Shown piece after piece: positions 860 through 35,395 of a DNA stretch of 64,000 nucleotides. The notes under the pieces were generated by a model. That model was not told where the DNA came from. It saw only the letters and a program-made list of their open reading frames with translations, and did not search any database. A program made the translations under genes and the position numbers. Location: the NCBI GenBank assembly GCA_003602415.1, contig QQSK01000011.1, forward strand, positions 4,186 to 68,185, given 5' to 3'. Every line of letters begins with the position of its first letter. Positions within the stretch are counted from its first letter, which is position 1. Source of the stretch: Candidatus Poseidoniales archaeon. GTDB lineage: Archaea; Thermoplasmatota; Poseidoniia; Poseidoniales; Poseidoniaceae.

Positions 860-1654
860 TTGGCTATGCGTATGTCACGGGTTTTCATCCGAAGTTTCCT
901 TCCGCTCATCCTTGTGTCATTGATGCTCTTGCCCGGGCTCAGTAATGCATACCCTAACGGCATTGGAGGTGAACAAAGCAATGCTGGAGAAACTATCGAT
1001 GATGTAGCCAAAGAAGGATGTCTTTGTCATGGCGGAGAACCAAGTAATTCTGTAATGGTAGTCTTAGTCGGAGTCCCATATTCATGGAATGAAACTGGCG
1101 AATACAACATGCGACTGGAAATTATTGGAGGACCAGACACTGACATGGGTGGATTTTCGGCAAGGGTTAGTGCTGGAGAATTATCTGGCGATGGTGAGGC
1201 TTGGGACGAAGACCCTGCAACATTATCTCACACAAATTCCAACTCAAGAATTTTCCAAATAACATGGACCCCACCAGCAAGTGGCGAAGGACATGTCGAT
1301 TTCTGGATTAGTGCGAACGCAGTAAATGGAGCTGATGGCCCTGCTGGCGATTATTGGAACCAACTTTTCTTCAACATCGGAGAAAGTGAATACACCGAAG
1401 ATCGTGGTACAAGGACATTAATCGCAGGCAGCGGCACTCCTGAAGCACCAAAGAGTAGCGCTGGTGAAATCGACATCTCTACTCTAGGAGCAGGATTTAG
1501 AGCACACTGGTTAGGACTTCTTGGATTTGGAGCTGTTGTGGCTGTAATCATATTCTGTGGACTGTTGCTTAGATATGGATTCTCAACATCTTACAAGGGT
1601 CGTAGCAACTTGCTACGTCTTCGTTACAAGATTAATCGCAGAGGTGATCAGTGA
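860..1654 (+). CDS. secreted, C-terminally membrane-anchored beta-rich protein with a CLCHGG motif (unknown family), first gene of the Rieske/cyt b operon
   Basis: Signal peptide (MRMSRVFIRSFLPLILVSLMLLPGLSNA), acidic ectodomain, single motif EGCLCHGGEP, C-terminal TM helix (WLGLLGFGAVVAVIIFCGLLL) plus basic tail. Its stop overlaps the next start (TGATG). Confidence 0.6.
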   Translation: MAMRMSRVFIRSFLPLILVSLMLLPGLSNAYPNGIGGEQSNAGETIDDVAKEGCLCHGGEPSNSVMVVLVGVPYSWNETGEYNMRLEIIGGPDTDMGGFSARVSAGELSGDGEAWDEDPATLSHTNSNSRIFQITWTPPASGEGHVDFWISANAVNGADGPAGDYWNQLFFNIGESEYTEDRGTRTLIAGSGTPEAPKSSAGEIDISTLGAGFRAHWLGLLGFGAVVAVIIFCGLLLRYGFSTSYKGRSNLLRLRYKINRRGDQ

Positions 1655-2106
1655 TGGCTAAGGATACAATCACCCAATTACTCGAAAAGGTTGCATCTGG
1701 CAAGGTTAGCGTCAAGGATGCTAGAACCGCATTGGAAGATGCATCCCTCACAGAAGAGCAGATGGATGCTGCCATCAATCATGGTGTATTCAACCCAGCA
1801 GAACCAGGAACTGTGATTTCTGCATCATTAGCACCATCGGGCAAATCTGCTCTAACATTATTCTTCTTCGCATGGGGAATATTCTGGTCGCTTTACTGGT
1901 TTGGCACTATGCTATACGGACTCCTAAACGGCTCCACATGGGACCAACAACAACTTTCATACCATCTTGCAATGGGACTTAGCACACTAATCATGATGGG
2001 TATTGTTTACCTGAAGTGGGTTTTGCCTGACACAATAATTGTCAAGCACAGTCAAAATAAGTACATCCCTGAACATCAGAAGGATTGGAGAGAATACAAG
2101 TGGTGA
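1654..2106 (+). CDS. integral membrane protein, unknown function (operon member)
   Basis: ATG at 1654 overlaps the preceding TGA. Soluble helical N-terminus followed by about 3 hydrophobic helices. No family recognised. Confidence 0.5.
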   Translation: MAKDTITQLLEKVASGKVSVKDARTALEDASLTEEQMDAAINHGVFNPAEPGTVISASLAPSGKSALTLFFFAWGIFWSLYWFGTMLYGLLNGSTWDQQQLSYHLAMGLSTLIMMGIVYLKWVLPDTIIVKHSQNKYIPEHQKDWREYKW

Positions 2107-2110
2107 TATC

Positions 2111-2959
2111 ATGGACGACATGAAACTAAGACCTGCACCTGCTACTGAAGGAAGCGAACTCTCCATGGTTGGAGATGTATCGGTTAATCGAAGGCAATTC
2201 ATGAGATATGGATTCAATGCTGCCAGTGGTGTTCTTGCAGCAACCTTAGGAGCACTTGGTTTTGCTTCTATATTACTACCTCCATCTGGAGGAGGAGGAG
2301 GAGACTCTGCTGTTCTTTACTGGGCTAAAGGTCGTGAAGATGAAGCATGGTACGGTGCTAAGCACTTACAACCGATGATGAAATCAGACTTCGAAGCTGA
2401 AGCCGCAGCATCCAATGTTGGAATGTCAGGGGCTCAAGGAGTATGGAATGGATTACCAGTAATCGTAAATTATGTCCCACACTCTCAGAATGCAGCAACT
2501 CCAGTCTCCGATAACTCTCCAAGATTCCAAGAGATGGCAGGTTACGACATCGGTGGAAATTATGTTGGGCATGCTACTGAATACCTGCTCGGAAATCCTG
2601 ATGTCTTCGACCCAAACAACAACCTCGTAATGAGTTTCGCAAGGTGTACACACCTGTGTTGTATTCCGGGATGGCAACTAGTTTCTAACTCCTTTACCGA
2701 TGATAATTGGACACCAGGAGGAGGTGACGATGGAGGAAGCAAGATGTTCTGCATTTGCCACTCCAGTAGATTCGACCCTACCGCTATTGAAGTCAATAGA
2801 AACGCAAACAGATCCACCGGTGCTTCTTTCGAGTATCTTGGTATTCGTAGAGCAGGAGGTCCTGCTCCAGTAGGACTACCAATTATTCCTATCATTATGA
2901 ATGGAGACACTATTGAGGCGTCTACAGATTACACGGGCTGGTTGACCTATTGCGACTGA
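2111..2959 (+). CDS. Rieske [2Fe-2S] iron-sulfur subunit
   Basis: Twin-arginine-like N-terminus (VNRRQFMRYG followed by a TM helix). Rieske boxes CTHLCC and CICHSS. ATG at 2111 is preferred to the track start 2039, which overlaps the previous gene; GGTGAT lies upstream. Confidence 0.85.
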   Translation: MDDMKLRPAPATEGSELSMVGDVSVNRRQFMRYGFNAASGVLAATLGALGFASILLPPSGGGGGDSAVLYWAKGREDEAWYGAKHLQPMMKSDFEAEAAASNVGMSGAQGVWNGLPVIVNYVPHSQNAATPVSDNSPRFQEMAGYDIGGNYVGHATEYLLGNPDVFDPNNNLVMSFARCTHLCCIPGWQLVSNSFTDDNWTPGGGDDGGSKMFCICHSSRFDPTAIEVNRNANRSTGASFEYLGIRRAGGPAPVGLPIIPIIMNGDTIEASTDYTGWLTYCD

Positions 2960-2968
2960 GGTGAAAAT

Positions 2969-3835
2969 ATGAGCACAATATTTTGGGTACTTTGGTTCTT
3001 TATAGCATTCATCATCGTTCTAATCGCATTTACACTGCGAAAAGAAAACGAAGAAATTCCACGCAGAGAAATTCTACGCGCTGTAGAATCAAGTGGAAAG
3101 ATGGGATTCGCTGAACGTGCATTCCTTTGGGTATTTTCATTCCTAGACACGAGATTCCGAATTCAAGATTATTGGAACATGAGCAAGGGCGCATATTACA
3201 ACATGCACAGACAAATGCCACTTACTCACGCAGAGAAATACAAACTGCGAATCATTTGGTATTGGTATCCATTGTATTGTTTAGGAGGGATTTCTTTCCT
3301 TTCATTCATTATTCTTGTAATCACTGGAACAGTTCTGGGAATATACTACGTCCCTGGTGGTGAAGGTGATCCTTCTCCTGCTTACGCAAGTATGCAGTTC
3401 ATCATGACTCAGTTACCATTCGGCTACATTATCCGTGCAGTACACCACTGGGGAACTCACTTCATGGTAGCATCAGTATTCTTACACATGTGTAGAGTAT
3501 ACTTCACTGGGGCATACAGAAATCCACGTGAGTTAAACTGGCTAATCGGAGTTGCACTGATGGCGCTGACTATTGTTTTCGGATATTCTGGATACTTACT
3601 GCCTTGGGACACATTGGCATACGGTGCTGCAGTTATTGGAATCAACTTAGCAAATGCTACACCGTTGATTGGTAAAAACATTGCAACTCTGCTATTCGGT
3701 GGCTCATCCCTATCACACCGAACCGTAACTAGAATGTACTTCATTCACGTATTCATCTTACCAGTGATTGTTACAACACTGATTATCATACATTTGTTCA
3801 TTGTATGGGTACAAGGAATTGCGGAGCCGCATTGA
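2969..3835 (+). CDS. cytochrome b, N-terminal four-helix di-haem domain (b6-like split form)
   Basis: HHWGTHFMVASVFLHMCRVYFTG and NWLIGVALMALTIVFGYSGYLLPWD. Second His pair in FIHVFILPVIVTTLIIIHLF. GAGGTGA SD upstream. Confidence 0.9.
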   Translation: MSTIFWVLWFFIAFIIVLIAFTLRKENEEIPRREILRAVESSGKMGFAERAFLWVFSFLDTRFRIQDYWNMSKGAYYNMHRQMPLTHAEKYKLRIIWYWYPLYCLGGISFLSFIILVITGTVLGIYYVPGGEGDPSPAYASMQFIMTQLPFGYIIRAVHHWGTHFMVASVFLHMCRVYFTGAYRNPRELNWLIGVALMALTIVFGYSGYLLPWDTLAYGAAVIGINLANATPLIGKNIATLLFGGSSLSHRTVTRMYFIHVFILPVIVTTLIIIHLFIVWVQGIAEPH

Positions 3836-3852: not shown

Positions 3853-6657
3853 ATGGGACTAATTGAGAATCTTGGTGCAGTTGCTTCATCCTATATGGAT
3901 GAAAAAGAAAGGCTAGAAACCGCAGACGAAAAGAGAAAGAGGACTCGGTCTGGCCATGGGTTTTGGCCTCATGAAGTTCTACGTGACACATTGATCTTCG
4001 GATTTATGGCATGTGTTCTATTGTTCTATGCTTGGTTAATTCCTCCTCCATTACATAGTGCTGCGGACCCATTCGCACAAGCTGGTTTCGTATTCCCTGA
4101 TTGGTATGTTCTATTCTCCTATGGATATCTAAGATGGGGAGAATATCTACCACAATTCGACGTGCCTTTAGGTCCTGTTGGAGACTTCTTTGGCCAACCA
4201 TCGTTCCCTTGGAATGCTGCATGGTGGGGTGCTTTCCTAACTGGAATCCCAGTAGGAATCCTAGCGCTACCTCCATTCCTAGGTGGTCGTGAAAAGAGAC
4301 CTGTTGAAGACCCGTGGTTTGCAAGTGCAGGTGTAGTTTACCTAGCACACATTTGGTTCATCTCTGTTTTCTCAATCAATATCTTCCTAGAATTATATGG
4401 TAAGAATAGGAGTGATTATTGTAAGTTAGATAGTCATGGAGATTTATTGTGTGGTACAAGAGATCCTTGGATTGCAGATTTATTCAACATGATTCCTTGG
4501 ATAATGACTGGCATCTTACTATGGATTATGATTTACTTCATAGCTAAATGGCTATTCAACAATGCTTGGGGTGCAAGGTTCACTCCTGCTCATGGAAAGA
4601 AATTGATTGTTGGTGCATTTATCGTTGCTACTGCAGCTAGCGTTGTTTCTTATCCTGTTTATGATAATGGATTCTGGGATGCAAAGGGTTTGCTTACCAT
4701 TTCTGATTATGGCGAACTAGAAGAAATGCGTTCACAGCCTACTGATGTTCACGTCCATGAGAGAAACGAATTCATGGACGCACAAGGATTTGAAGGAGAA
4801 ATAGTACCTGCTTCTGCTTGGATGGATTGGAATATATACCAACCTGCCAGATATTATCTGATAGATTTCGCAGATAATAATGGTCATCAAGATTTGGATT
4901 CAGGAATTAACGGCGCTACTGGTCTAGAAAATTATACTGCTGACGAAACCATTTGGGCAACAGGTACATTCATTATTTCGGATACATATTGGCCAGAAGA
5001 TAATGATTTCACAACAGTTCCAGTTGATGCGACTTGTGAAACAAGGGCGAGTGAAGTGATTATCGATGGAGGAGATTCTACCTCTGCAATGATTCAATCC
5101 AGTTTGATCATCAAATCCCGAGACACAAATAAGACGGTTATCGATACTGATTGTAACAGTGGTGAGACTGGAGTTGAACTCGAAGACGGAGAATATGATT
5201 ACGAGTTTAGAGTTGAATCAACAGATGGACTCAAGACAAATCAAAGTGTTACTGTTGAAACAATGTTCACAATAAGTGCTTACCAGCCACTTCTATTGTA
5301 TGATGATGATGCAAAGCACGGATTTGCTGGCAAAACAGTTGACCTGACAAACGTTACCGAATTAGCAATTGTAGGAGACGACATGGGAGAGGTTGTCAAT
5401 CCAACATACCATGCAAATCCTAAGGCATTAGATGCAAAATTGACCTATGCAATGTTCATTCCGTGCTTAACTGCAGGTGCGATTGTATTCGTAGTTCTAA
5501 GAAACATGGCAAGAGGATATGAATTCGAAATGAACAAATGTTACGGATGTGACCTTTGTGATGATGCTTGTCCTGTTAGATTATTCAACGCTGGTGACAA
5601 ATTGAATATCATTTACAATTCATGGAATAATGAAGATGATGGCGTACCGATGTATTCATGTTTGACTTGTACAGCATGTACCAATGCTTGTCCACAACTT
5701 GTCGATTACGACTCCTATGTTGATATTCGCCGCTCACTAATAGTCGGAGGGCCTGCTGCTGAGATTCCTCACACGGTTCTACAAGCGGTATTAGCTGCCG
5801 AAGCGGAAGAAGACAGTGATGGCGACTTTGTATCTGTTGAAGAATATCCAATCGATTCCAACATTGGTTACTATCCTGGATGTGTTGATTATCTGGACCA
5901 AGAAATGGTCTTCAGCCATCTCAATGAAGGTGAAATGAACCTCGGGGACACCACAAACTCTGCATTCACTCTGTTTGAGGAAATGGGAACTGAGGTATCA
6001 TACCTAGGAAGAGACTTCCTGAAGTGTTGTGGCCACGACCAAAAGTGGCAAGGACTTGATGAAGTATTTGAGAAATTGAAGTCATACAATCAGAAGAAGA
6101 TCGAAGCATCAGGAATTGACACTCTGGTATCTTCATGTGCTGAATGTTTCAGAACTTTCGCAAGAGATTACGAATTAGAAGGTGTGAAAGTCATGCACAC
6201 CACTGAGTTCCTTATCGAAAACGGATTCGATATGGAGATGAAGGTCGAAGATGAATTGACTGTAACCTATCATGACCCATGTAGACTTGGTAGGCAAATG
6301 GGAATCTATGACGAACCTCGTGAATTAGTTGCAGGTGTAGAAGGTGTCGAACTTGTTGAGATGGAACACCATGGTGAAGATGCAATGTGCTGTGGAGTTT
6401 CCAGCATGATGTCATGCAACGAAAATGCACGTGCTTTGAGAGTTACAAGAATGGAAGAAATCAGGAACACAGGCGCTGATATGATGATTACATCGTGTCC
6501 AAAGTGTGTTTCTCACTTCGAATGTTTGAAATTTGAAGGCGATGAAAGACACGATATCGAGATTCTCGATGTTGTTTCATTCCTTGCAAGACAAGTTGAA
6601 GCAAAGAAATCCATTGCAGATGAAGTATCAACTGCTCAAGTTTCTGTAGAAGCTTAA
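3853..6657 (+). CDS. fusion protein: cytochrome b C-terminal / subunit-IV-like module + extra TM helices + ~258-aa outward insert + HdrD/GlpC-type 2x[4Fe-4S] and 2xCCG domain
   Basis: Single 934-codon ORF with a GGAGGT SD. N-terminus reads FWPHEVLRD..DPFAQAGFVFPDWYVLFSYGYLRW (PEWY-type Qo loop). Six hydrophobic helices by eye. C-terminus has CYGCDLCDDACP and CLTCTACTNACP, then C-x47-CC-x35-CAEC and C-x35-CC-x34-CPKC (hand count). Confidence 0.85.
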   Translation: MGLIENLGAVASSYMDEKERLETADEKRKRTRSGHGFWPHEVLRDTLIFGFMACVLLFYAWLIPPPLHSAADPFAQAGFVFPDWYVLFSYGYLRWGEYLPQFDVPLGPVGDFFGQPSFPWNAAWWGAFLTGIPVGILALPPFLGGREKRPVEDPWFASAGVVYLAHIWFISVFSINIFLELYGKNRSDYCKLDSHGDLLCGTRDPWIADLFNMIPWIMTGILLWIMIYFIAKWLFNNAWGARFTPAHGKKLIVGAFIVATAASVVSYPVYDNGFWDAKGLLTISDYGELEEMRSQPTDVHVHERNEFMDAQGFEGEIVPASAWMDWNIYQPARYYLIDFADNNGHQDLDSGINGATGLENYTADETIWATGTFIISDTYWPEDNDFTTVPVDATCETRASEVIIDGGDSTSAMIQSSLIIKSRDTNKTVIDTDCNSGETGVELEDGEYDYEFRVESTDGLKTNQSVTVETMFTISAYQPLLLYDDDAKHGFAGKTVDLTNVTELAIVGDDMGEVVNPTYHANPKALDAKLTYAMFIPCLTAGAIVFVVLRNMARGYEFEMNKCYGCDLCDDACPVRLFNAGDKLNIIYNSWNNEDDGVPMYSCLTCTACTNACPQLVDYDSYVDIRRSLIVGGPAAEIPHTVLQAVLAAEAEEDSDGDFVSVEEYPIDSNIGYYPGCVDYLDQEMVFSHLNEGEMNLGDTTNSAFTLFEEMGTEVSYLGRDFLKCCGHDQKWQGLDEVFEKLKSYNQKKIEASGIDTLVSSCAECFRTFARDYELEGVKVMHTTEFLIENGFDMEMKVEDELTVTYHDPCRLGRQMGIYDEPRELVAGVEGVELVEMEHHGEDAMCCGVSSMMSCNENARALRVTRMEEIRNTGADMMITSCPKCVSHFECLKFEGDERHDIEILDVVSFLARQVEAKKSIADEVSTAQVSVEA

Positions 6658-6711: not shown

Positions 6712-7506
6712 ATGGTTATGGATTATGACTCTCATACATTGATTCAACTCAAAACAATGTGTAAAGATAGAGGACTCAGAGTCAGTGGAACAAAGGCAGA
6801 AGTAATCATTCGTCTAATGGAAGATGATGAATCAAAATTACCTACTCCTGTAATGGTTCCAACACAAACAATCCAGATGCATCCACAACATCATCAGGTT
6901 CAACCTGTGACTCATATCTATGTAAACAATAATTCTGATTTAACTTTACAATTAACAGGAATTGGAATTCTATTGTATGGAATATTCCGTATTGGCATGG
7001 CCTTACTGTTTAACGAGTGGATGCCTGCTGAATCATTTTTGGCAATGTTGATTGGCCTAGGGTTTATTCTTGGTGGAGTTACTACGATTCAGGGTTACAA
7101 ACAAGGACTTCAACTTACGTTAGGAGTATTAGTTGTTTCAGGAATTCTTTCACTCATCAATCATGACGAATTTTCGCCACTGTCCATTGGAATGGGAGGA
7201 TTTTGGCCAGTTTGGCTTTCACTCTTATGCTCTGGAACATGTATGATCATTGTAGCAACCCCACTCCTAGGAGTTGCTGATTCCCAATTTAGAGCCGGCT
7301 CCCCCAACTATATGACTTCAGCAATTAATACGGCTGACTTTGTATCACCAGCACCACTTGTGATGAAAGAACCAGATAAAAGACCGGCTACTGAAGGAAA
7401 AATTGTCACAAAGTGTGTTCACTGTCAATCTAAATTGAAGGTACCAATCGGTTACAAAGGACGAGTAAAATGTCCTACATGTAATGAAAGATTCAAAGTT
7501 GAATAA
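6712..7506 (+). CDS. SAP-domain / multi-TM / C-terminal zinc-ribbon protein
   Basis: N-terminal LIQLKTMCKDRGLRVSGTKAEVIIRLMEDDE matches the SAP helix-extension-helix pattern. Four to five TM helices follow. The C-terminus is KCVHCQSKLKV..VKCPTCNERFKV (CxxC..CxxC). Confidence 0.6.
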   Translation: MVMDYDSHTLIQLKTMCKDRGLRVSGTKAEVIIRLMEDDESKLPTPVMVPTQTIQMHPQHHQVQPVTHIYVNNNSDLTLQLTGIGILLYGIFRIGMALLFNEWMPAESFLAMLIGLGFILGGVTTIQGYKQGLQLTLGVLVVSGILSLINHDEFSPLSIGMGGFWPVWLSLLCSGTCMIIVATPLLGVADSQFRAGSPNYMTSAINTADFVSPAPLVMKEPDKRPATEGKIVTKCVHCQSKLKVPIGYKGRVKCPTCNERFKVE

Positions 7507-7791
7507 TCATTCAGTTGGAGGACTATCTTCGTCCATACCCCGGATTTCATAGTTTGAAGGGAACATAGCAACAATGACTCCTGCGATAAGGAAGCCCAAG
7601 CCCAAGCCAAATTTTTGTTCAACGAACAAGAATTCTAGAGCAAAAACGACCAATAACAATCCTCCTATATTGGATACCCAGACAAGAGTTTTGAAAGTCG
7701 AAAGTGATACTCCAGTGGTATTTGGTCCTCTGACTGGCCCGAATTCTCCGCCAAATCTCTGAGCCCCTTCGTGTTCTGGTTGCTTACTCAT
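7507..7791 (-). CDS. small membrane protein (last gene of the coupled operon)
   Basis: ORF with two hydrophobic helices. The ATG at 7791 (MSKQPEHEG) is 4 nt after the ferredoxin stop; the track start 7806 would overlap it. Confidence 0.4.
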   Translation of the reverse strand: MSKQPEHEGAQRFGGEFGPVRGPNTTGVSLSTFKTLVWVSNIGGLLLVVFALEFLFVEQKFGLGLGFLIAGVIVAMFPSNYEIRGMDEDSPPTE

Positions 7792-7795
7792 ATTA

Positions 7796-8128
7796 TCACC
7801 TATCAATCATTGTAATCGCATCAGTAGGACATGCCAACACACAGAGTCTGCATCCTGTACATGCATCTCTGATGATCTTGGCTTTACGGTTGCTAGGAAC
7901 TTCTAACAATGGTGAAGACATCTCTTTGAAATATAATTCAATGGCGTCATCATCACAAACGATTGTGCATTGGTCACATCCAATACACAAGTTCTCAGTC
8001 ACCCAAGCAACTGTACCTTCACCACCTTTGATAGTTGACCTGCGTTCTCCTTTCTGTCTTGCAAGAGAAATCGCAATTCGCTCAGCCTCTGCTTCGCGAC
8101 GCTTAGCCAAGTCTTCAGGTGAGGTCAT
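7796..8128 (-). CDS. 2x[4Fe-4S] ferredoxin-domain protein
   Basis: CIGCDQCTIVCDDDAI and CTGCRLCVLACPTDAI. ATGA start/stop overlap with the upstream gene. Confidence 0.8.
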   Translation of the reverse strand: MTSPEDLAKRREAEAERIAISLARQKGERRSTIKGGEGTVAWVTENLCIGCDQCTIVCDDDAIELYFKEMSSPLLEVPSNRKAKIIRDACTGCRLCVLACPTDAITMIDR

Positions 8129-8782: not shown

Positions 8783-9766
8783 TCATTGCAATTCGATTGA
8801 AACACCTTCTGAACGCATTACATCGATTACCATTCGCACAACATCATCTGGTAAATCTTCAGGTGCATGTACTCCTGGTGACAACATGTCTTGATTTTCA
8901 GCCCAGGCTTTGACACAACAAGCTGTTACTAGACCAGTTGTTCTAGCCATACTTGAATCACCATTTTTGCCACGGTCTTCCACAATCCATCTTTGTTGTT
9001 CATCTCCTGATGAGATGAATACTTCCATCCAAGTAAATTCTTGGCGTTGAGGATCTAATTTCCACGCATCAACCAACTCATCCGCAGTTAGTTTTGATTG
9101 CTGATATTTCTGAATATGGCCTGGCCATCGCACGGTATATTCACCCATATGTGTGGCAGGAATATCTAGTAAGGACCTAAGACCATCTGTAAGGAATGCT
9201 TCCATCTCTCTACCGCTTGCATCTATAGTGTGTAAATCACTCATCGCATCGACTTGAGTATGCTTTCCATCAACCACAATTCTAGCAGGTCTGGTGTACT
9301 CTGCAATCACATCATGTGGAGAAAAGGGAGCCATGTACGACCATTCTGAATCTGGAATTAGAGGATTGCCTCCAACCTTGATTGTCACCTTATCTAAGAA
9401 ACCAAATTCTCTGAAGGCCATTCCGACCAACATGTTCGACAAACCAGGAGCGATTCCCACATCCCAAAGAATTGAACTAACAATACCATTGTGCCGGTCA
9501 GGAGTTTGTTCACTGAATGACAAATCTACTATTTTTTGACCTGAATCCTTTAGCAGTTCAGTAGCTTTTCCACCTATTGAACCAGGAAGCATGTTTACAA
9601 TCAAATCTGCAATACTGTGGTCAAAAGACATAGCATCACCCAAATGGAAATTGGCTTCAGTATCTCTTGAAACAATGTCGTATAGGTGTACTTCGAAGCC
9701 TGAATTCACAAGATTTTTTGTGACAAAACTTCCAACTAGACCTCCTCCAAGACAGTGAATTCTCAC
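8783..9766 (-). CDS. saccharopine-dehydrogenase-like NAD(P)-dependent oxidoreductase
   Basis: Rossmann motif at the very N-terminus (RIHCLGGGLVGSFV). Size and C-terminal domain are typical of the saccharopine / carboxynorspermidine / lysine-6-dehydrogenase family. GTGA overlap with the upstream stop. Confidence 0.65.
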   Translation of the reverse strand: MRIHCLGGGLVGSFVTKNLVNSGFEVHLYDIVSRDTEANFHLGDAMSFDHSIADLIVNMLPGSIGGKATELLKDSGQKIVDLSFSEQTPDRHNGIVSSILWDVGIAPGLSNMLVGMAFREFGFLDKVTIKVGGNPLIPDSEWSYMAPFSPHDVIAEYTRPARIVVDGKHTQVDAMSDLHTIDASGREMEAFLTDGLRSLLDIPATHMGEYTVRWPGHIQKYQQSKLTADELVDAWKLDPQRQEFTWMEVFISSGDEQQRWIVEDRGKNGDSSMARTTGLVTACCVKAWAENQDMLSPGVHAPEDLPDDVVRMVIDVMRSEGVSIELQ

Positions 9767-10977
9767 ATAGAGCCCTCCAGTTGCTTTTTTGATTCAGCGC
9801 CCATGGCTAGCATTGATAATTCAGCGATTAAAGCATGCCAACCGTGAGCATGCTCTCCGAATTTATCTCCAACTTCACTGTAGGGGAGGAATCTTGCAGA
9901 TGGTGAGTTGAGATTTTCCATTTCACCTTTCTTCGAATTGATTCTGTAAAACCAAGATGCCGCCTCTCCATCAACGAGATAGACTACTGGCTCTACCGGA
10001 GAGCCGTCTGTGGATTTCATAAGAGTTGGAACTCCTTCTTGTATCAAAAAGTTCTCAACATCAACTCCACCTTTAGAATACATCAAACGCTTGAACTTGC
10101 GATTTGAAAGATTGAGGAGTTGATCTCCGCTGCTGACTGCCATTATTCCCAAACCATATGTTCCTCTATCGTTCTTGATGAATGCAACTGGTTCCCTATC
10201 TATTCCCAGTATCTCATATCGATGTGCAATTTTTGCTAAAAACTCATCAACTTCAGCAGCTAACATCTGCCTGCAAGTTTCTTTTTCAAGACATTTATCT
10301 TTACTAACAAACCAATCTGTCATAAGATGCCAAGAATCTATTCCCAAAATATCTGCAATTTCGTCAACATAGCTTTGTAGACAAGCATAATGCTCTGATT
10401 TTCTTCTTCGCTGCCATCCCATATGAGGTGGAGGGAACACTTGATTGGACGACAGTCCTGGCAACAAACCTTCAGTCAAGTCATTGTTTAGCATAATCAA
10501 ATCTGGTTGTTCTCCTTCGACGAGTAACGAATCGCCATCCAAGATAACTTCATTCAATAGTAATGGACCTGAAATACCATCCAATGAACCATGCCCTTCC
10601 AGTTCAGGCGAACCTACTGTGCACCGGAAGCCACCCATAGTAATTAGTCGCTTTATGGTTGAAACATTTTCCACATATCCTTGATTCCTTGTATGGGATT
10701 CAGGATAGAGATGTACCCATTTACAATTTTGATTTAACCGCAGAATGTGGTCACGTAACAATGATGAAAGATTGGATTCGTCTTCTTTTGAAACATTGTT
10801 AAATCCAGCAGGGAAGTGATTAGCATCTACCACTGCAACTTTCCAACCACTATCTCTGATGTCCACGCTACCGTAGATTGGAATCGGAACCTCGGAACGT
10901 TTAGTTGCCATCCATTGAGTAATTTCGCTTCTCTTTTCCTCGAGAAGTTTAGTTAGATTATGGACTACAAATTTCAA
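9763..10977 (-). CDS. ATP-dependent carboxylate-amine ligase, resembles the rare Acidithiobacillus-type glutamate-cysteine ligase (GshA) family
   Basis: 404 aa. YGSVDIRDSGWKVAVVDANHFPAGFNN and IKNDRGTYGLGIM recall the Pfam GshA / TIGR02049 family from memory only. TTG start in a TTGA overlap with the asnB-like stop. The coding call is firm; the family call needs an HMM. Confidence 0.45.
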   Translation of the reverse strand: MKFVVHNLTKLLEEKRSEITQWMATKRSEVPIPIYGSVDIRDSGWKVAVVDANHFPAGFNNVSKEDESNLSSLLRDHILRLNQNCKWVHLYPESHTRNQGYVENVSTIKRLITMGGFRCTVGSPELEGHGSLDGISGPLLLNEVILDGDSLLVEGEQPDLIMLNNDLTEGLLPGLSSNQVFPPPHMGWQRRRKSEHYACLQSYVDEIADILGIDSWHLMTDWFVSKDKCLEKETCRQMLAAEVDEFLAKIAHRYEILGIDREPVAFIKNDRGTYGLGIMAVSSGDQLLNLSNRKFKRLMYSKGGVDVENFLIQEGVPTLMKSTDGSPVEPVVYLVDGEAASWFYRINSKKGEMENLNSPSARFLPYSEVGDKFGEHAHGWHALIAELSMLAMGAESKKQLEGSM

Positions 10978-12686
10978 TCTAATTCCTCCAATAAATCGGT
11001 TGCGCTGCCTGAGCGTTTGCTTCTACCACCATCTAATATGTGCATTGATTCAAACAACCCTAATCCAATTGCAATCTCTGGCTGCTTGATTAACGCTCGT
11101 TCTAATCCAGAGTAGCGTTTAGCAATTTTTGTAACATGAGGTTGAAGATCATCTATTAGTGAATCAATCAACTTAGGCGATGTTGCTCTACCTGCAGGTA
11201 GTTTAGGCCTTCTTACTATGTCCGAAGGGAGTTTAGTCAATTCGGCTGCTGCTCGAAGTGCTGCTTTTTCTTCACCTGAACTTGGTAATCTCCAATCCAT
11301 TGGAAGCTTGTTAGATGCTTTGCGATGCCTACTTCCCAAAAACGGAACTCGTACTTCTAAACCGTGGGCCATTGAGTGCCTGTCGACCAATCTCAATTGG
11401 AAATTGGATAACTGGCCATGGTCTAATTCAAACTGCAAGAAATCTTGCAAAGAACCTGTATGAGCATCTGGTGAGTGATTTGTAGTCCACCATTGTTCTC
11501 CTTGAAGTGACGACAAATCACAGTCCATATCAGCAAGCCTTTGAGTTATTGACCGATTATGTTTCTCCAAATTTTTGTATCGAGGGTAACCGGCATGTAA
11601 TTCATCTGCTCCCTGTCCACAAAGCCCTACGGTTACGGATTCAGACATCTTCGAAAACAAAGGCTGGAAAAATAATACTGTCACATCCAAATCTTCTCCG
11701 TGCCAAGCCAAATCAGGTAATTTAGAATCAAAGGAGTCCGGCGACAAAATATGTTGATGGTGTTCTAAATCAAGACTAGATGCCACTATTTCAGCAGCTT
11801 GCCAATCGGGATTATCTTCGCTTTCAGCAACAGTCCAGCATGCAGGAACTGGTTGTTCTGCAATTTCTGCTGCTTCTCTTGCAACAGCACAAACCAAACT
11901 GGAATCTAATCCACCTGAAAGAACAATGCCAACTGGTACATCGGCCATCAAGCGATCACTGACGCTTAAAGTAAAACTGTCCAACAAACCACGAGGGTCA
12001 TTCCAATCAATTTCTGGCTCAACAGATTGTACTTCAAATCTCGACATACTGGTCATTGTTGGAGTGCCATCAATCATTTCCCAAACTTCTACTGTGCCCG
12101 GTCGAACTTGATGAACTCCTGAAAATAAAGTGGTTGCATCAAGAGGATATTCCCATGCAATTCTTGCTTTAAGTGCCAAGATATCGATATTTGGCACATA
12201 TTCATCATAGGCTCGCAGTGCTTTGGCTTCTGATGCAAAAAGTAGATTTCCATCGACTGTAGTCCGCATCAAAGGTTTGATTCCAACAGGGTCACGAGCA
12301 AGAATTAGTTGGCCTTCAGACCACAATGCAAATGCAAACATGCCATCTAATTTTGAGATCCATTTGGCATGCTCACTAGCAGAAGATTTTCCATTATGTA
12401 GTGATAATACAATCTCACTATCTCCGTTGGTAGTATAGTTGTATAAACTATCCCTCAAGGACTTGTGATTGTAGATTTCACCATTCACAACTCCAACTTT
12501 ACCTGGTCCACTTATTGGCTGAGGAGAGCCTTCAATATCCAGAATTGCTAGACGAGTATGAGCAAGACCGCAAATATCATCATTGTAGATTCCATTTCCA
12601 TCGGGACCTCGATGATGTAGCAATGAAACCATGCGTGACAGGACGTTTGCGTCCGGCTGACCAAGCATCCCTGCTATGCCACACAT
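10974..12686 (-). CDS. asnB: asparagine synthase-like glutamine amidotransferase (class II Ntn + PP-loop)
   Basis: MCGIAG N-terminal nucleophile Cys, DGMFAFALW, and SGGLDSSLV PP-loop. Confidence 0.85.
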   Translation of the reverse strand: MCGIAGMLGQPDANVLSRMVSLLHHRGPDGNGIYNDDICGLAHTRLAILDIEGSPQPISGPGKVGVVNGEIYNHKSLRDSLYNYTTNGDSEIVLSLHNGKSSASEHAKWISKLDGMFAFALWSEGQLILARDPVGIKPLMRTTVDGNLLFASEAKALRAYDEYVPNIDILALKARIAWEYPLDATTLFSGVHQVRPGTVEVWEMIDGTPTMTSMSRFEVQSVEPEIDWNDPRGLLDSFTLSVSDRLMADVPVGIVLSGGLDSSLVCAVAREAAEIAEQPVPACWTVAESEDNPDWQAAEIVASSLDLEHHQHILSPDSFDSKLPDLAWHGEDLDVTVLFFQPLFSKMSESVTVGLCGQGADELHAGYPRYKNLEKHNRSITQRLADMDCDLSSLQGEQWWTTNHSPDAHTGSLQDFLQFELDHGQLSNFQLRLVDRHSMAHGLEVRVPFLGSRHRKASNKLPMDWRLPSSGEEKAALRAAAELTKLPSDIVRRPKLPAGRATSPKLIDSLIDDLQPHVTKIAKRYSGLERALIKQPEIAIGLGLFESMHILDGGRSKRSGSATDLLEELD

Positions 12687-23400: not shown

Positions 23401-26400
23401 TCAGCGATTTGGAATATCTCCAATTTGACCGATCTCATTAGCAACTCTAGTCAGTGCTTCCTGTGCACTAGTCTTGTGGACTTGTCCCATCTCGTGTCGG
23501 CTGTAACGTGCTTCTTCGAATACAGAATCTAGTGCAGATAATGATTCCTCGGATAGATTAGGCAGTGCTGCTCTAATAGCCATCTCGAATTCTCTAACGG
23601 TTTCGAAATCTCGTCGCAGGAATCCTCTACCCATCAATAAGTGAACTAGACTTTCATAACATTGGAAAATAGCCTCACGCATTGAATCGCCTGCAGCAAG
23701 TAACTCTGCAGTGTAAGAGAAGATATCTGCAATCTCTTTTGCTGCATCCTCTGCTCTTCTTCTTAGAACGACGAATGTAGTTACGCCTGCAAGTAATAAT
23801 GCGATGAATACATAGAACCATACAGATTCGAATATCGAGGTTTCTTCACCTTCGTAGGAATAATCTGGAGTGATTCCAGAATTGAATTGAGTGTTAAACT
23901 CTGTCATCGAATTATCCGAAATCACGAAGTTGGATGTGATTGACATCTTCAAAGTCAATTCTCCATATTCTGATGCATCACCATATGGAGGCTCGGCATT
24001 AAATTCGAAAGAAGCGGTTCCACTCGAATCTGTTACAATAACAACCTCATCTAGACGTGTGCCGCTTTCATTCTCCAGATAAACAGAGATTGCAATTCCT
24101 TCAACACCATCGCCAGTGTCTTTAGCAACCAATTCAATATCACCTTTCACAACTTCTTGCTCATTTTCAACTATAGGCTCAATGTCTACATCGAATGGAG
24201 TTTCAAGATCAATTCTGACCGATATTGAATCTGTCCAAGAATTGCCTTCTCGCAGATATAGCGATGAGTTTTGAGGTGTTTGAATATTCAATTGCATTTG
24301 CCCTGGCTCTATCCATGAAGGAGCAGTAGCGACGATAGTGTATGTTCCACCATTCCAAATTACACTCTCGATATTGATACAACGGGCCTCTGTTCCACTT
24401 GAATCACAATTAATTCCATTTCCAAGAATGAGTGCTGCATCATCTATGAGTACTCCTTGTCCACCAATCTCAGTTACTCTACCTGTGATCTGAATCCTGT
24501 GCTCAACTCCATCTCCTCTGACCACATATGTATTGGCTGAATCGATATGAACGGTTACATCTGCCCATACGGTGATTGTTTGATTGGATGCCACAGGCAG
24601 ATGGCCTGGACTTCCTTCAAAGTCAAATGTCATGATGTGATTACCACGTGCATAGGAAGATTCAGCTCTTATGGAAGTGCTGAATTCACCATTGATAGAT
24701 GTTACAACCGTATCTACAAGTGAGCCTCCGATGTAGATAGAAATTGTCTCACCTGCTAATCCATCATTCAATGCTGTGTCAATATCGTACAATGTACCTG
24801 TGATTTCCCAGAAATCATCTCTAGTAGCATCATTATCTGAAATGCTAACCGTCATTCCTGTACGATGTGCCAAGAAGAATGTCGTATTTCCTTGTCCAGA
24901 ACGGTACCAGCCTTGGGCAGGTACATCTGCGATTACAGTGTGATTACCGTCTGCAAAGATGTTAGGGACTTGCCAATTGAAACTGAAGTTTCCATTTGCA
25001 TCGGTTGTTGCATTTCCAATCGAGACTCCTTCAACAGTTACCAATACGAACATGTTTGCTAATGGATTTAGTTGGTTATCTCCAACGAATCCATCGACAG
25101 TGGTTAATTGCTCAACAGCAAGTGGTGATTCGATATTCACTTGTACAAAGATCTTGGAGAATATATTCCAAGTTCCATTATTTGTTGAAGGTAGATATCC
25201 TACTGAACCAGTAAATCTAGTTTCTAACAAGACAGGGCCCAATTCTGCATCGGCAGGAACTGGGTGAATTGCTGTGAAAGAACCATCTGCAGTTGTGGTT
25301 ACATTGGTAAGGAAAACTCCTCCCAACCAGATTTCAATGGATTCGCCTTCGAGAGGATTGTCCACTATGTCCAAGAGACGACCTTGAACTGTTAGAGTAT
25401 CCTCACGGTCAACTTGACCTCCTTGAGTGATTAACAGTATCTTGGTAGGAACTGCCACTGTGAAGTTCACTGAATCTGAACTTGGGTGATAGAAATCTGG
25501 GTTTGCACTATCACCATCTCCTACAGGGTCGACCCAATCTCTTCCTCCAGCAAAGCTCACGATTATGTTATGCTGTCCTGCATTGATACTTTCTGGAGAG
25601 TTCCATGCGAACATAAACATTCCATCAGCAGAATTCGATTGAACACTTGAAACTGGTACTCCATCGACCAATAGATAAACAACTGCAATTGAGTTGTTTC
25701 CATCTATCTGTAATGGTAAGCCAAGGTCATCTAGTAGTGTACCATTGACATAGAGAACATCTCCTGCAGTAATGGCCGATGAACTTTCAGTGATGTTGAC
25801 AACAGTTTGACCAAGGACTACGAAAGTGACACTTGCGGTATCTCCAACTAGCCCGGTAGTTCCAGGTATTCCTGTAAACTCTGCATCTAGATCATGGAAT
25901 CCTACCTGCACATCAGCAGGCACTGTTAGATTCACATCTACAACACCCATTGAGTCAGTAGTTCCAATTGTCGTCACGCTTGTACCGTTTAGAGAAACTG
26001 TGACTTGGGCTCCAACGACTGCAGCGCCTGTATTGTCAAACAATTGCAATCTTGCATTTACATCATCTCCACGGTCAGTTCTATCATTGAGGGACGGTTG
26101 GTTAACCCCATCAAGTGAAGGAGATACAAACGTTAGAGTCGTATACCCTCGACTATCGAAGGATTGATTCGCACTAGAACCAGAATAATAGTTCACCGAA
26201 GGGATATATTGTGCTTCGGCAATATGTGTGCCTGCACCAAACCCGGAAGACAGGGCGATATTGGCTGTCCAACTTCCATTAGCCTGTATTTGTCCGTTAG
26301 TCAAAGTAAATCCTGTTGCATTTCCATCGATTGTGAACAGAACATTCGCAGTCAATTGATTGCCGTTCCTCAACTGAAGTGCGCTTCCGTTATCGCTTTC

Positions 26401-32292: not shown

Positions 32293-32376
32293 ACGCACGG
32301 CTAACACCAAGACTTCGGTATCACCAAAGGCACTTAATGGAAATGGTACATTGTTCATACACAATTTTGCCAAAAC

Positions 32377-32393
32377 TCTCCCCTACGGGGAGA
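32377..32393 (-). terminator. hairpin plus U-tract after the 966-aa (ATG 35315) gene
   Basis: TCTCCCC TAC GGGGAGA, a 7-bp stem with loop GUA on the minus strand. It lies 22 nt after the stop at 32415 and is followed on the minus strand by GUUUUGG. Confidence 0.35.
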
Positions 32394-32414
32394 AAATTAA
32401 CGATTTTAGAGGTA

Positions 32415-35315: not shown

Positions 35316-35380
35316 GCGCACCAATATACCGTCTGCGCTGGGGTGTTAAACCGTTTTGCACAGATTGCTTACCAAAGGAG

Positions 35381-35395
35381 TCACCCTACGGGTGA
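35381..35395 (-). terminator. hairpin overlapping the stop codon of the 807-aa gene
   Basis: TCACCC TAC GGGTGA, a 6-bp stem with the same GUA loop as 32377-32393. It is followed on the minus strand by CUCCUUUGG. Confidence 0.3.

Follow-up and report, generated by a model that had tools for sequence, protein, structure and literature searches.

The stretch of DNA considered here (the window) comprises 64,000 nucleotides (nt) from a Candidatus Poseidoniales archaeon, a representative of Marine Group II (MGII), and corresponds to positions 4,186 to 68,185 of the forward strand of contig QQSK01000011.1 (assembly GCA_003602415.1). It contains a respiratory operon whose most unusual member is a fusion gene at 3853..6657 (+ strand). 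The encoded protein of 934 amino acids combines a module like subunit IV, the C-terminal half of cytochrome b, with an HdrD-like iron–sulfur (Fe-S) module; between the two lie two extra transmembrane (TM) helices that flank a predicted outside insert. This description draws on Pfam, NCBIfam, homologues, a structure model (AlphaFold2, AF2) and Foldseek comparisons. The reading frame is free of interruptions, follows directly behind genes for a Rieske protein with a twin-arginine translocation (Tat) signal and for a cytochrome b6-like protein, and is preceded by a Shine–Dalgarno-like box (GGAGGT) 7 nt 5' of its ATG. A preliminary description, made from the nucleotide sequence, had reported this uninterrupted frame of 934 codons after Rieske and cytochrome b genes, a set of motifs with defined CCG spacings, and six TM helices with an acidic insert between the fifth and the sixth; translation, hydropathy and composition agree with all of this, and every motif lies where it was placed.

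The subunit IV core occupies residues 30-231 (3940..4545, +), with helices designated E, F, G and H by analogy. It contains the stretch FWPHEVLRD (residues 37-45) and, at residues 61-102 (4033..4158, +), the Qo or ef loop, which is the best-conserved stretch of the whole protein. Within the loop, DPFAQAGFVFPDWYVLFSYGYLRW (residues 72-95) harbours the tetrapeptide PDWY (residues 82-85, nt 4096), in register with the PEWY of subunit IV and cytochrome b; P82, D83, W84 and Y85 are invariant in all alignments, distant relatives included. PDWY is a recognised natural variant of the Qo motif and is tied to menaquinol and low-potential Rieske proteins (PMC4122944).

Direct Pfam searches are silent on this module: the N-terminus of the fusion protein gives no PF00032 match at E<0.01, and precomputed PF00032 annotations are found on none of the best 120 of 473 homologues, which were retrieved with the 934-residue protein from 5.8 billion proteins. 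The possibility that subunit IV is truly absent was rejected by profile searches with the MGII N-terminus against the PDB and against 1.84 billion representative proteins. A broad family profile, with the MGII sequence first, gave 48 PDB matches, all of them cytochrome b C-terminal halves or subunit IV (best E 5e-13; subunit IV 1.4e-9), and its alignment spans helix E, the ef loop and helices F and G. The profile restricted to MGII found b6f subunit IV alone in the PDB, at E 0.055, with six of six matches in register at ADPFA...PEWY. Against the representative proteins it matched 136 entries, among them canonical long cytochromes b such as P0198 (6.5e-8, residues 233-308). Many relatives score between 1e-14 and 1e-24, and P0148, P0172, P0174, P0193 and P0167 pass the PF00032 gathering score; the orthologue from Marine Group III (MGIII) aligns with residues 231-390 of actinobacterial QcrB at 2.3e-10. 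In a Foldseek search with the AF2 model of the N-terminal module, the top 20 hits are all cytochrome b or subunit IV, with weak scores (best E 2.7e-3); the model has low confidence (predicted local distance difference test score, pLDDT, 62.7) and serves for consistency only. On the strength of these profile matches the N-terminus can be assigned firmly as a true homologue of the cytochrome b C-terminal half, despite the silent Pfam scan. The subunit IV assignment of the preliminary description is thus carried by the family profile and not by a direct PF00032 match.

The C-terminal module begins with a two-[4Fe-4S] ferredoxin domain (residues 559-615; 5527..5697, +), for which Fer4_8, Fer4_9 and Fer4_10 all exceed the Pfam cut-offs. 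Its two CxxCxxCxxxCP motifs are CYGCDLCDDACP (residues 563-574) and CLTCTACTNACP (residues 603-614). Two CCG domains follow at residues 677-765 and 804-889 (5881..6519, +), matched by PF02754 in two stretches at 3.7e-25, and contribute ten Cys in the arrangements C677-x47-C725C726-x35-C762AEC765 and C810-x35-C846C847-x34-C882PKC885. Both domain types had been proposed beforehand, and both are recovered by Pfam. In a family alignment of 24 sequences (A3), the eight Cys of the ferredoxin domain are without exception invariant, and all 18 cluster Cys are invariant or nearly so. The signature of the module can be written as KCCGHD...SCAEC / HDPCR...CCGVSSMM...CPKC.

The only PDB sequence match of the C-terminus is EtfD of M. 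smegmatis (9ojn, 2.8e-23), and EtfD (7.3e-14) also leads the Foldseek results for the full-length AF2 model, followed by LutA (8e-9) and HdrB (1.6e-7). Among the NCBIfam families, TfrB, LdhH, GlpC, GlcF, DsrK, TmcB and HmcF give partial matches, all far under their cut-offs; the equivalog thresholds are not reached by TfrB (115.6 of 385 bits, the best), LdhH (80.4 of 800), GlpC (41.3 of 278) or DsrK (35.4 of 400). The nearest kin of the fused module are instead found in a soluble HdrD-like subfamily (324-390 amino acids; KCCGHD / SCAEC / CPKC; loci L003-L036 and L060-L080), whose members are 44-49% identical to the module of P0172, one of the short single-chain forms described below. They are encoded upstream of HdrC, HdrB, a 1000-residue HdrA, MvhD and a second HdrA, in Methanoperedens, ANME-2, Methanosarcinales, Bathyarchaeia, Asgard archaea, Gemmatimonadota, Zixibacteria and Chloroflexota. 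Canonical HdrDE was considered as the closest kin and discarded; the matches in Methanoperedens and Methanosarcinales are soluble HdrD-like genes followed by HdrC, HdrB, HdrA and MvhD (the characterised genes here being the downstream ones only).

One residue of the first CCG domain merits separate mention. Glu764, within C-A-E-C (window 6142-6144), is invariant in 24 of 24 family members and aligns with His583 of EtfD; the HdrB sequences compared have G or I there. In EtfD, His583 (C-x-H-C) ligates the second CCG cluster and CT replaces CC in the first CCG motif, and both features make EtfD non-catalytic (PMC13083937). By analogy, Glu764 could be a carboxylate ligand that marks a non-catalytic cluster, and its invariance hints at an electron wire rather than a catalytic site.

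A Kyte–Doolittle scan of the fusion protein locates six hydrophobic segments, at residues 46-64, 126-144, 161-179, 213-231, 251-269 and 530-548. The N-terminus of subunit IV lies on the n-side in both b6f and bc1 complexes; with six helices and an n-side start, the C-terminal module therefore returns to the n-side. The density of K+R is 0.18, 0.19, 0.21 and 0.15 in the segments predicted inside, against 0.02, 0.12 and 0.05 in those predicted outside, and all five N-x-S/T sequons fall within predicted outside segments. In the short, insert-free relatives P0172 and P0174, four hydrophobic segments precede the Fe-S domain, and the count is thus even here as well; the remaining short forms give less clean hydropathy counts. 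From established knowledge, a C-terminal Fe-S domain lacking a Tat signal would not be expected to be exportable. The Fe-S/CCG module is consequently predicted to be cytoplasmic, on the n-side face of the complex, and the topology suggested earlier, with the insert outside and the clusters inside, is supported indirectly by helix parity, charge density and sequon placement alike. The first cluster Cys follows 14 residues past TM6, and a tether of 14-16 residues between the last TM helix and the first Cys is kept at least in MGII and in P0172.

The acidic insert (residues 270-529; 4660..5439, +) lies between TM5 and TM6 and is characterised by its composition, the AF2 model and Foldseek. It has 51 D+E against 14 K+R, a net charge of -37, and contains four of the sequons. 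A β-sandwich core is indicated by strands at residues 340-480, modelled with pLDDT 85-90, and Foldseek finds a weak resemblance to GOLD β-sandwiches (E about 0.01); a sequence search against the PDB gave no match. The subunit IV+Fer4 genes of MGIII (about 350 amino acids) and soil Thermoplasmata (about 430) have no room for such an insert, nor have the short single-chain forms, and for this reason it is termed MGII-specific. It is read as a predicted extracellular decoration. The full-length AF2 model has a mean pLDDT of 70.5, with 85-92 in the CCG region; its inter-domain geometry is undefined, because the predicted template modelling score (pTM) is only 0.45.

Among the best 120 of the 473 matches, 114 are full-length homologues of more than 900 amino acids (up to 969) that cover the whole query at 61-89% identity. 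They stem from independent ENA, JGI, NCBI, Tara and Logan assemblies, and several stand for hundreds of member sequences. Across these 114 sequences, conservation is 97% (column mean) in the Qo loop (residues 61-90), 84-95% in the Fe-S and CCG parts, and about 50% in the insert. The core of a Qo-type quinol oxidase, consisting of a Rieske protein, a dihaem cytochrome b6 with haem ci motif, and a subunit IV with PDWY, is present and under strong purifying selection, and the subunit IV chain runs on covalently into four Fe-S cluster sites. It can be stated with high confidence that the subunit IV::HdrD-type architecture is a genuine, conserved covalent fusion encoded behind Rieske and cytochrome b6-like genes.

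The same domain order also occurs beyond MGII. A genome scan with six non-MGII fusions as queries yielded 80 loci, which were annotated by phmmer. Single chains of the type subunit IV::Fer4::CCG, known in MGII from the 114 homologues above, are also encoded in L001 (Geothermarchaeales, 563 amino acids), in L002 and L037 (unclassified 'Methanobacteriota' metagenome-assembled genomes (MAGs), 606 amino acids) and in L012 (P0172, 543 amino acids). MGIII has the same operon with a subunit IV::Fer4 protein of about 350 amino acids and a separate CCG protein of 295 amino acids; soil Thermoplasmata, Angelo soil MAGs included, encode subunit IV::Fer4 (about 430 amino acids) followed by a CCG protein of about 320-360 amino acids. 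A Halobacteria MAG has subunit IV::Fer4 alone (P0144, 336 amino acids). Throughout, the gene order Rieske, cytochrome b6, fusion is identical in all full-length related loci, and the subunit IV::Fer4 junction is intact in every relative examined; MGIII and soil Thermoplasmata break the chain only between Fer4 and CCG. A division into separate subunit IV and Fe-S genes, which would have spoken against the proposed fusion, is seen in none of them.

Several of the single-chain loci continue into further Hdr genes. In L012 (4729-14876), the Rieske/b6/fusion genes lead directly into HdrC, HdrB, a double-length HdrA of 1010 amino acids and MvhD, with multihaem cytochromes c on the flanks. Downstream of the L001 operon lie HdrA (1024 amino acids), MvhD and a second HdrD-like gene, and in L002 the Rieske/b6/fusion genes run into an HdrA-like gene at the contig end. 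To judge from gene content, these loci of anaerobic-looking relatives appear to juxtapose quinone-based and flavin-based bifurcation machines. In L002 and L037, the cytochrome b6 domain forms the C-terminus of a protein of 941-1074 amino acids. A more distant relative, P0158 (577 amino acids), carries its subunit IV module (PF00032, 1.6e-08) together with a Laminin_G_3/concanavalin-like domain, not an Fe-S module; judged from this case, fusion to other domains seems to be something that recurs in subunit IV.

The partners of the fusion protein are encoded on either side of it. The Rieske [2Fe-2S] protein (2111..2959, +) has the Tat signal RRQF and the cluster-binding boxes CTHLCC and CICHSS; it matches NCBIfam Rieske_proteo at 6e-08, below the cut-off, and is homologous to the PF00355-positive Rieske protein of L012. 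Its mechanical open reading frame (ORF) starts at 2039, and the ATG at 2111 is the likely start. The adjoining cytochrome b6-like protein (2969..3835, +; PF00033, 1.2e-43) is a four-helix haem subunit with four His ligands and the sequence YCLGG, which contains the CxGG motif of haem ci. Its best PDB match is cytochrome b6 (3.8e-45), Cys104 being aligned with Cys35 of b6. The Cys of CxGG is kept in MGII, in the soil Thermoplasmata loci, and in L002, L012, L037 and L045; MGIII has SLGG (L039, L040, L043, L047, L049-L053, L064 and L070), and L001 has YLGS. Because SLGG replaces CLGG in MGIII, covalent haem ci has probably been lost there, although the Fe-S module is retained. A role of haem ci as an obligatory relay is ruled out by the Ser of MGIII and the Tyr of L001 at the Cys position.

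Two further genes precede the Rieske gene. The first operon gene (860..1654, +) encodes a secreted protein with signal peptide, a G-C-x-C-H motif and a C-terminal TM anchor; NCBIfam recognises a choice-of-anchor V domain (3.6e-20), and Pfam gives no match for the protein. In the alignment, GCxCH is invariant about 25 residues into the mature chain, as are NxVNG and DxW. The overall layout resembles that of cytochrome f or c1, with CxCH here in place of their CxxCH. Since its homologues hold the same operon position in MGII and MGIII, this protein may be the p-side partner that accepts electrons from the Rieske protein. No cytochrome f, c1 or CXXCH protein was found in the operon by Pfam, NCBIfam and inspection of the sequences. 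The second gene (1651..2106, +) encodes a protein of 151 amino acids with a soluble N-terminus and two hydrophobic stretches that, by eye, are probable TM helices; its homologue in L081 weakly matches DUF7318 (PF24002). Because homologues are conserved just upstream of the Rieske gene, in MGII, MGIII, L001 and L002, it is probably an unrecognised small subunit of the complex.

On the other side lies a gene for a 2x[4Fe-4S] ferredoxin of 110 amino acids (7796..8128, - strand; Fer4_21, 1.2e-13). Its best NCBIfam match is the rnfB subfamily (TIGR01944) at 5.5e-13, with 48.9 bits against a cut-off of 68.7, and concerns the dicluster part only (model positions 82-164); 'RnfB-like' is thus a statement of resemblance, not of family membership. 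A homologue of the protein (1e-13 to 1e-17) is encoded immediately behind the CCG gene in all those MGIII and soil Thermoplasmata loci for which downstream sequence is available. The MGIII homologues are themselves fusions, in which the added domain is either zinc-ferredoxin-like (5.5e-17) or a flavodoxin FMN domain (7e-39). The gene at 7507..7806 (-), co-transcribed with that of the ferredoxin, translates into a small protein whose extended hydrophobic region, by eye, probably comprises two TM helices; genes for 95-100 amino acids also stand behind the ferredoxin gene in L081, L083 and L084, and a weak match is found behind the MGIII ferredoxin gene in L049. The order in MGII (L081-L084) is a secreted protein (269-275 amino acids), a DUF7318-like protein (149), Rieske, cytochrome b6 (288), fusion (920-926), ferredoxin (110-126) and the 95-100-residue protein. 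In L081, L083 and L084, the ferredoxin gene is directly downstream on the same strand, with a gap of 4 nt in L083. The window differs from these three loci in that the pair of ferredoxin and two-TM genes is inverted.

MGII archaea rank among the most abundant heterotrophs of surface seawater, and what is known of their respiratory chain comes from annotation only. The literature credits them with cytochrome b and Rieske genes but no canonical bc1/complex III, with RnfB, and with an 'MGII specific complex III' (Tully 2019; PMC6336850). MGII seemed to be without the second half of cytochrome b because annotation pipelines label the fusion gene 'Fe-S oxidoreductase' or 'HdrD'; the missing half lies in this gene, so that the catalytic core of complex III is whole in MGII.

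In relation to b6f and Bacillus-type bc complexes, the MGII complex shares the split into a four-helix b6 and subunit IV, the haem ci motif, the Rieske partner and the PEWY-type Qo loop. It differs in that its subunit IV, like a long cytochrome b, includes a fourth helix (H), and in the addition of two TM helices, the outside insert and a cytoplasmic Fe-S module of 385 amino acids. Its Qo motif is PDWY, the operon lacks a cytochrome f/c1 homologue, and the context is non-photosynthetic. With HdrDE, DsrMK, HmeCD and TmcBC, it has in common a cytoplasmic module of two [4Fe-4S] clusters and two CCG domains on a quinone-linked membrane b cytochrome. In those systems the anchor is of the NarI type, whereas in MGII it is a bc-type scaffold with Qo and Qi sites, linked covalently through subunit IV; moreover, the MGII host is an aerobic heterotroph, and the DsrK, HmcF, TmcB and TfrB models stay under their cut-offs. 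As the anchor is bc-type b6 plus subunit IV and not NarI-type, the MGII fusion is not a member of HdrDE. The closest resemblance, in structure and among PDB sequences, is to EtfD/syntrophic EMO (PDB 9ojn), in which a membrane domain and an HdrD-like module likewise form a single chain. EtfD has a five-helix, NarI-like haem-binding domain, whereas the fused TM domain in MGII has no haem ligands; EtfD has CT (with a linear [3Fe-4S] cluster) and the ligand His583 (PMC13083937), whereas MGII has CC and an invariant Glu. The fusion protein is not an EtfD member.

The preliminary description regarded the fusion as an undescribed architecture, and this holds in part. No description of a subunit IV::HdrD fusion, or of its presence in MGII or MGIII, was found in the open-access literature searched; the wider claim was too strong, as there are precedents (PMC9038741, PMC4122944, PMC5600118). 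Diamond et al. (2022; PMC9038741) reported hdrD-like and rnfB-like genes near complex III in Angelarchaeales and proposed a ferredoxin entry point. This is almost certainly the same system; loci from the Angelo site (with 14_0903/14_1009 in their scaffold names) and from further soil Thermoplasmata MAGs show Rieske, b6, subunit IV+Fer4, CCG and a ferredoxin-domain protein. That report devotes one sentence to gene proximity and mentions neither a subunit IV::Fe-S fusion nor MGII or MGIII, and the soil genomes encode the CCG domains separately. Kao and Hunte (2014; PMC4122944) described a bacterial 'PDWF-FeS' clade in which cytochrome b is joined in one protein to 4Fe-4S/MvhD domains, and anammox bacteria have Rieske/cytochrome b complexes with cytoplasmic NAD(P)/FeS oxidoreductase subunits (PMC5600118). 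Both resemble the MGII case in that a bc-type cytochrome b is joined to, or co-encoded with, a cytoplasmic Fe-S or flavin module, and both illustrate that a whole cytochrome b, Qo motif included, can serve other bioenergetic complexes. They differ in that the PDWF-FeS gene clusters lack a Rieske gene and the proteins have 4Fe-4S+MvhD or ferredoxin+flavin domains and no CCG, and in that the anammox modules are separate GltD-like subunits rather than a covalent fusion. The fusion itself thus appears undescribed, having been found nowhere in the literature searched; its gene neighbourhood has been noted once, in the sister lineage Angelarchaeales.

As to function, a redox wire of some kind between the Fe-S module and the n-side is rather probable. 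The more specific reading preferred here is advanced tentatively, with confidence a little short of even: the cytoplasmic module would conduct electrons from ferredoxin-type carriers to the n-side haems or the Qi site, and complex III would double as an entry point for ferredoxin electrons. The Fe-S chain on the cytoplasmic face would exchange electrons with haem bH (or haem ci where CxGG is kept) or with the Qi quinone; by analogy to EtfD and HdrDE, the Fer4 clusters would be membrane-proximal and the CCG clusters distal. The RnfB-like ferredoxin of the operon would dock on the module and relay electrons from a metabolic ferredoxin or flavodoxin, itself reduced for example by 2-oxoacid:ferredoxin oxidoreductases in peptide catabolism. 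Flow would probably be inward, which is at least as likely as the flow out of the low-potential branch envisaged in the preliminary description: at Qi, ferredoxin and haem bH would each contribute one electron to the reduction of quinone, and quinol would be oxidised at Qo. With ferredoxin at about -420 mV and menaquinone at about -75 mV, such flow would be strongly exergonic. In net terms, ferredoxin electrons would pass to the high-potential chain with the Q-cycle stoichiometry of 2 H+ per electron and zero net use of quinol. This would essentially be Mitchell's original Q cycle with a donor at centre N; his first version had a dehydrogenase donor there (recounted in PMC5600118).

A ferredoxin or flavodoxin is favoured as the partner because the gene for the RnfB-like ferredoxin is conserved in the operon. 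For the same reason, the disulfide or organic-acid partner suggested in the preliminary description is not favoured by the context. The conserved haem ci Cys of MGII and the consistent topology indicators support a wire, and EtfD provides a precedent in an aerobe, where an HdrD-like module connects CCG clusters via [4Fe-4S] clusters and haem b to menaquinone (PMC13083937). Further support comes from the independent proposal of ferredoxin entry for Angelarchaeales (PMC9038741) and from the record of RnfB in MGII (PMC6336850). If the Fe-S chain does communicate with the haems of the n-side, complex III would be the point at which electrons carried by ferredoxin from the breakdown of peptides and amino acids join aerobic respiration. 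This would bear on how aerobic archaea reoxidise ferredoxin, and would offer a model both for electron injection at the Qi/haem ci side of b6f-type complexes and for the descent of bc complexes from cytochrome-b-anchored dehydrogenases.

A number of points weigh against a ferredoxin-fed wire. Helix H of cytochrome b is peripheral in known structures, and the first cluster could therefore sit out of reach of haem bH. All ten Cys of the Hdr signature are in place, with CC and not the CT of EtfD, as in a catalytic disulfide site. The substitutions at the haem ci Cys in MGIII (Ser) and L001 (Tyr) mean that this haem is no obligatory relay, the RnfB-like label lies below the NCBIfam cut-off (48.9 against 68.7 bits), and gene linkage gives no direction of electron flow. 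In the anaerobic relatives, finally, the operon extends to HdrC, HdrB, HdrA and MvhD, which fits heterodisulfide-type chemistry at least there.

The most serious alternative, which is nevertheless unlikely, is the one raised in the preliminary description: bifurcation at Qo with a cytoplasmic output. Quinol would be oxidised at Qo; one electron would go to the Rieske protein and the oxidase, and the low-potential one via bL, bH (and ci) and the Fe-S clusters to a disulfide at noncubane CCG clusters, with Qi bypassed or in competition. The substrate could be, for example, bis-γ-glutamylcystine, or in anaerobic relatives a heterodisulfide of the DsrC or CoM-CoB type. Such chemistry would account for the presence of both CCG motifs with all ten Cys as in HdrB and HdrD, the CC being undegraded in contrast to EtfD, and for the Qo loop being the best-conserved part of the protein. 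It is in keeping with the nearest kin of the module (44-49% identical to that of P0172), which are soluble and HdrD-like and whose genes, in Methanoperedens and ANME-2, accompany those for HdrC, HdrB, HdrA and MvhD, as well as with the linkage of Rieske, cytochrome b and fusion genes to further Hdr genes in L012, L001 and L002. In the window, a glutamate–cysteine ligase gene is situated 3 kb away from the operon, and L083 shows this linkage too, but it is missing in L081 and the MGIII loci. The conserved ferredoxin or flavodoxin–ferredoxin gene would be left unexplained; an invariant Glu where EtfD has His583 points to a cluster with a full set of ligands, and no NCBIfam model for heterodisulfide reductase, DsrK or TfrB reaches its cut-off. 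Exposed noncubane clusters are, furthermore, expected to be sensitive to O2 (PMC13083937), and MGII are obligate aerobes (PMC6336850).

Docking of a flavoprotein dehydrogenase in the manner of EtfD, GlpC or GlcF is somewhat less probable again. Electrons from the electron-transfer flavoprotein (ETF), or from lactate, glycolate or glycerol-3-phosphate dehydrogenase, would then reach the b haems or quinone through the module, with the ferredoxin as an accessory. EtfD is the best structural match (Foldseek 7.3e-14, sequence 2.8e-23), LutA is second in Foldseek, LdhH, GlpC and GlcF give partial NCBIfam matches, and the literature portrays MGII as organisms that degrade proteins and fatty acids (PMC6336850). 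The LdhH, GlpC and GlcF scores are, however, far under the family cut-offs, and the protein lacks the traits specific to EtfD (CT motif, His ligand, NarI-type anchor). No etfAB, glcD, lutBC or glpAB genes were found beside the operon in the scanned stretches of MGII (window, L081 and L083), MGIII and soil genomes, where most ORFs of the loci were screened with custom queries blind to such genes.

It is quite improbable that the Fe-S module is merely tethered, making no redox contact with the b haems and serving as an independent surface quinone reductase (compare the CCG proteins of the SdhE/GlpC type), a redox sensor or regulator, or an assembly factor. A loose attachment would suit the peripheral position of helix H, the tolerance of MGII for two extra TM helices and a 260-residue insert between subunit IV and the Fe-S domain, the longer hydrophobic linker of the soil forms (multi-TM by hydropathy) and the AF2 pTM of just 0.45. 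Yet all lineages examined keep the Fer4 junction, including those with a detached CCG part, and the short tether of 14-16 residues is conserved at least in MGII and P0172; all known HdrD-like modules on membrane cytochromes exchange electrons with haems (PMC13083937, PMC9478090). An assembly error, frameshift or chimera that joins a subunit IV gene to an Fe-S gene, as might be suspected from the lack of a Pfam cytochrome b domain at the N-terminus and from the separate CCG genes of MGIII and soil Thermoplasmata, can be dismissed in view of the 114 full-length homologues among the best 120 of 473 on independent contigs from five data sources, the same fusion in other MGII genomes on contigs of up to about 200 kb, and the subunit IV::Fer4 junction in every relative.

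Taken more broadly, the complex may run a Q cycle with its n-side accessible from the cytoplasm, operating either as a 'donor d' Q cycle with ferredoxin or by Qo bifurcation onto Hdr-type clusters in an obligate aerobe; this is a doubtful proposition, if a consequential one. In the 'donor d' version, which is Mitchell's original one, the second electron at Qi would come from ferredoxin and the complex would act as a ferredoxin:high-potential-acceptor oxidoreductase, moving 2 H+ across the membrane for each electron with no net consumption of quinol, and either version would constitute a new operating mode for the Rieske/cytochrome b family. An n-side input from ferredoxin toward haem ci is debated for cyclic electron flow through b6f, and the MGII complex would then be a covalently wired natural model for this contested route. 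It would also be a living example of a cytochrome b with an attached cytoplasmic oxidoreductase, which is the postulated ancestor of bc complexes.

Some features of the neighbourhood are recorded here for completeness. A gene for a SAP-domain protein (6712..7506, 264 amino acids; PF02037, 1.2e-06) is inserted between the fusion gene and the inverted ferredoxin pair; SAP domains are unusual in archaea. The glutamate–cysteine ligase gene, gshA (archaeal type; PF08886, 3.7e-98), stands beside an asparagine synthase gene at 9763-12686 (-), 3 kb from the operon. Its presence implies, as far as gene content goes, a thiol of the γ-glutamylcysteine type in the MGII lineage of the window. Besides the window, L083 has the gshA/asparagine synthase pair close to its operon, and neither L081 nor any MGIII or soil locus does; the linkage was considered as a clue to a γ-glutamylcysteine disulfide substrate and, given its absence from those loci, is treated as local synteny. 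Its association with an HdrD-like module looks coincidental. Further along, at 23401-37809 (-), there are three consecutive very large genes for proteins of 2990, 969 and 807 amino acids. The first has a transglutaminase-like core with TSP3 and CarboxypepD_reg repeats, the second has no Pfam match, and the third contains YHYH and He_PIG domains; all three are probably surface proteins, as would be typical of MGII.

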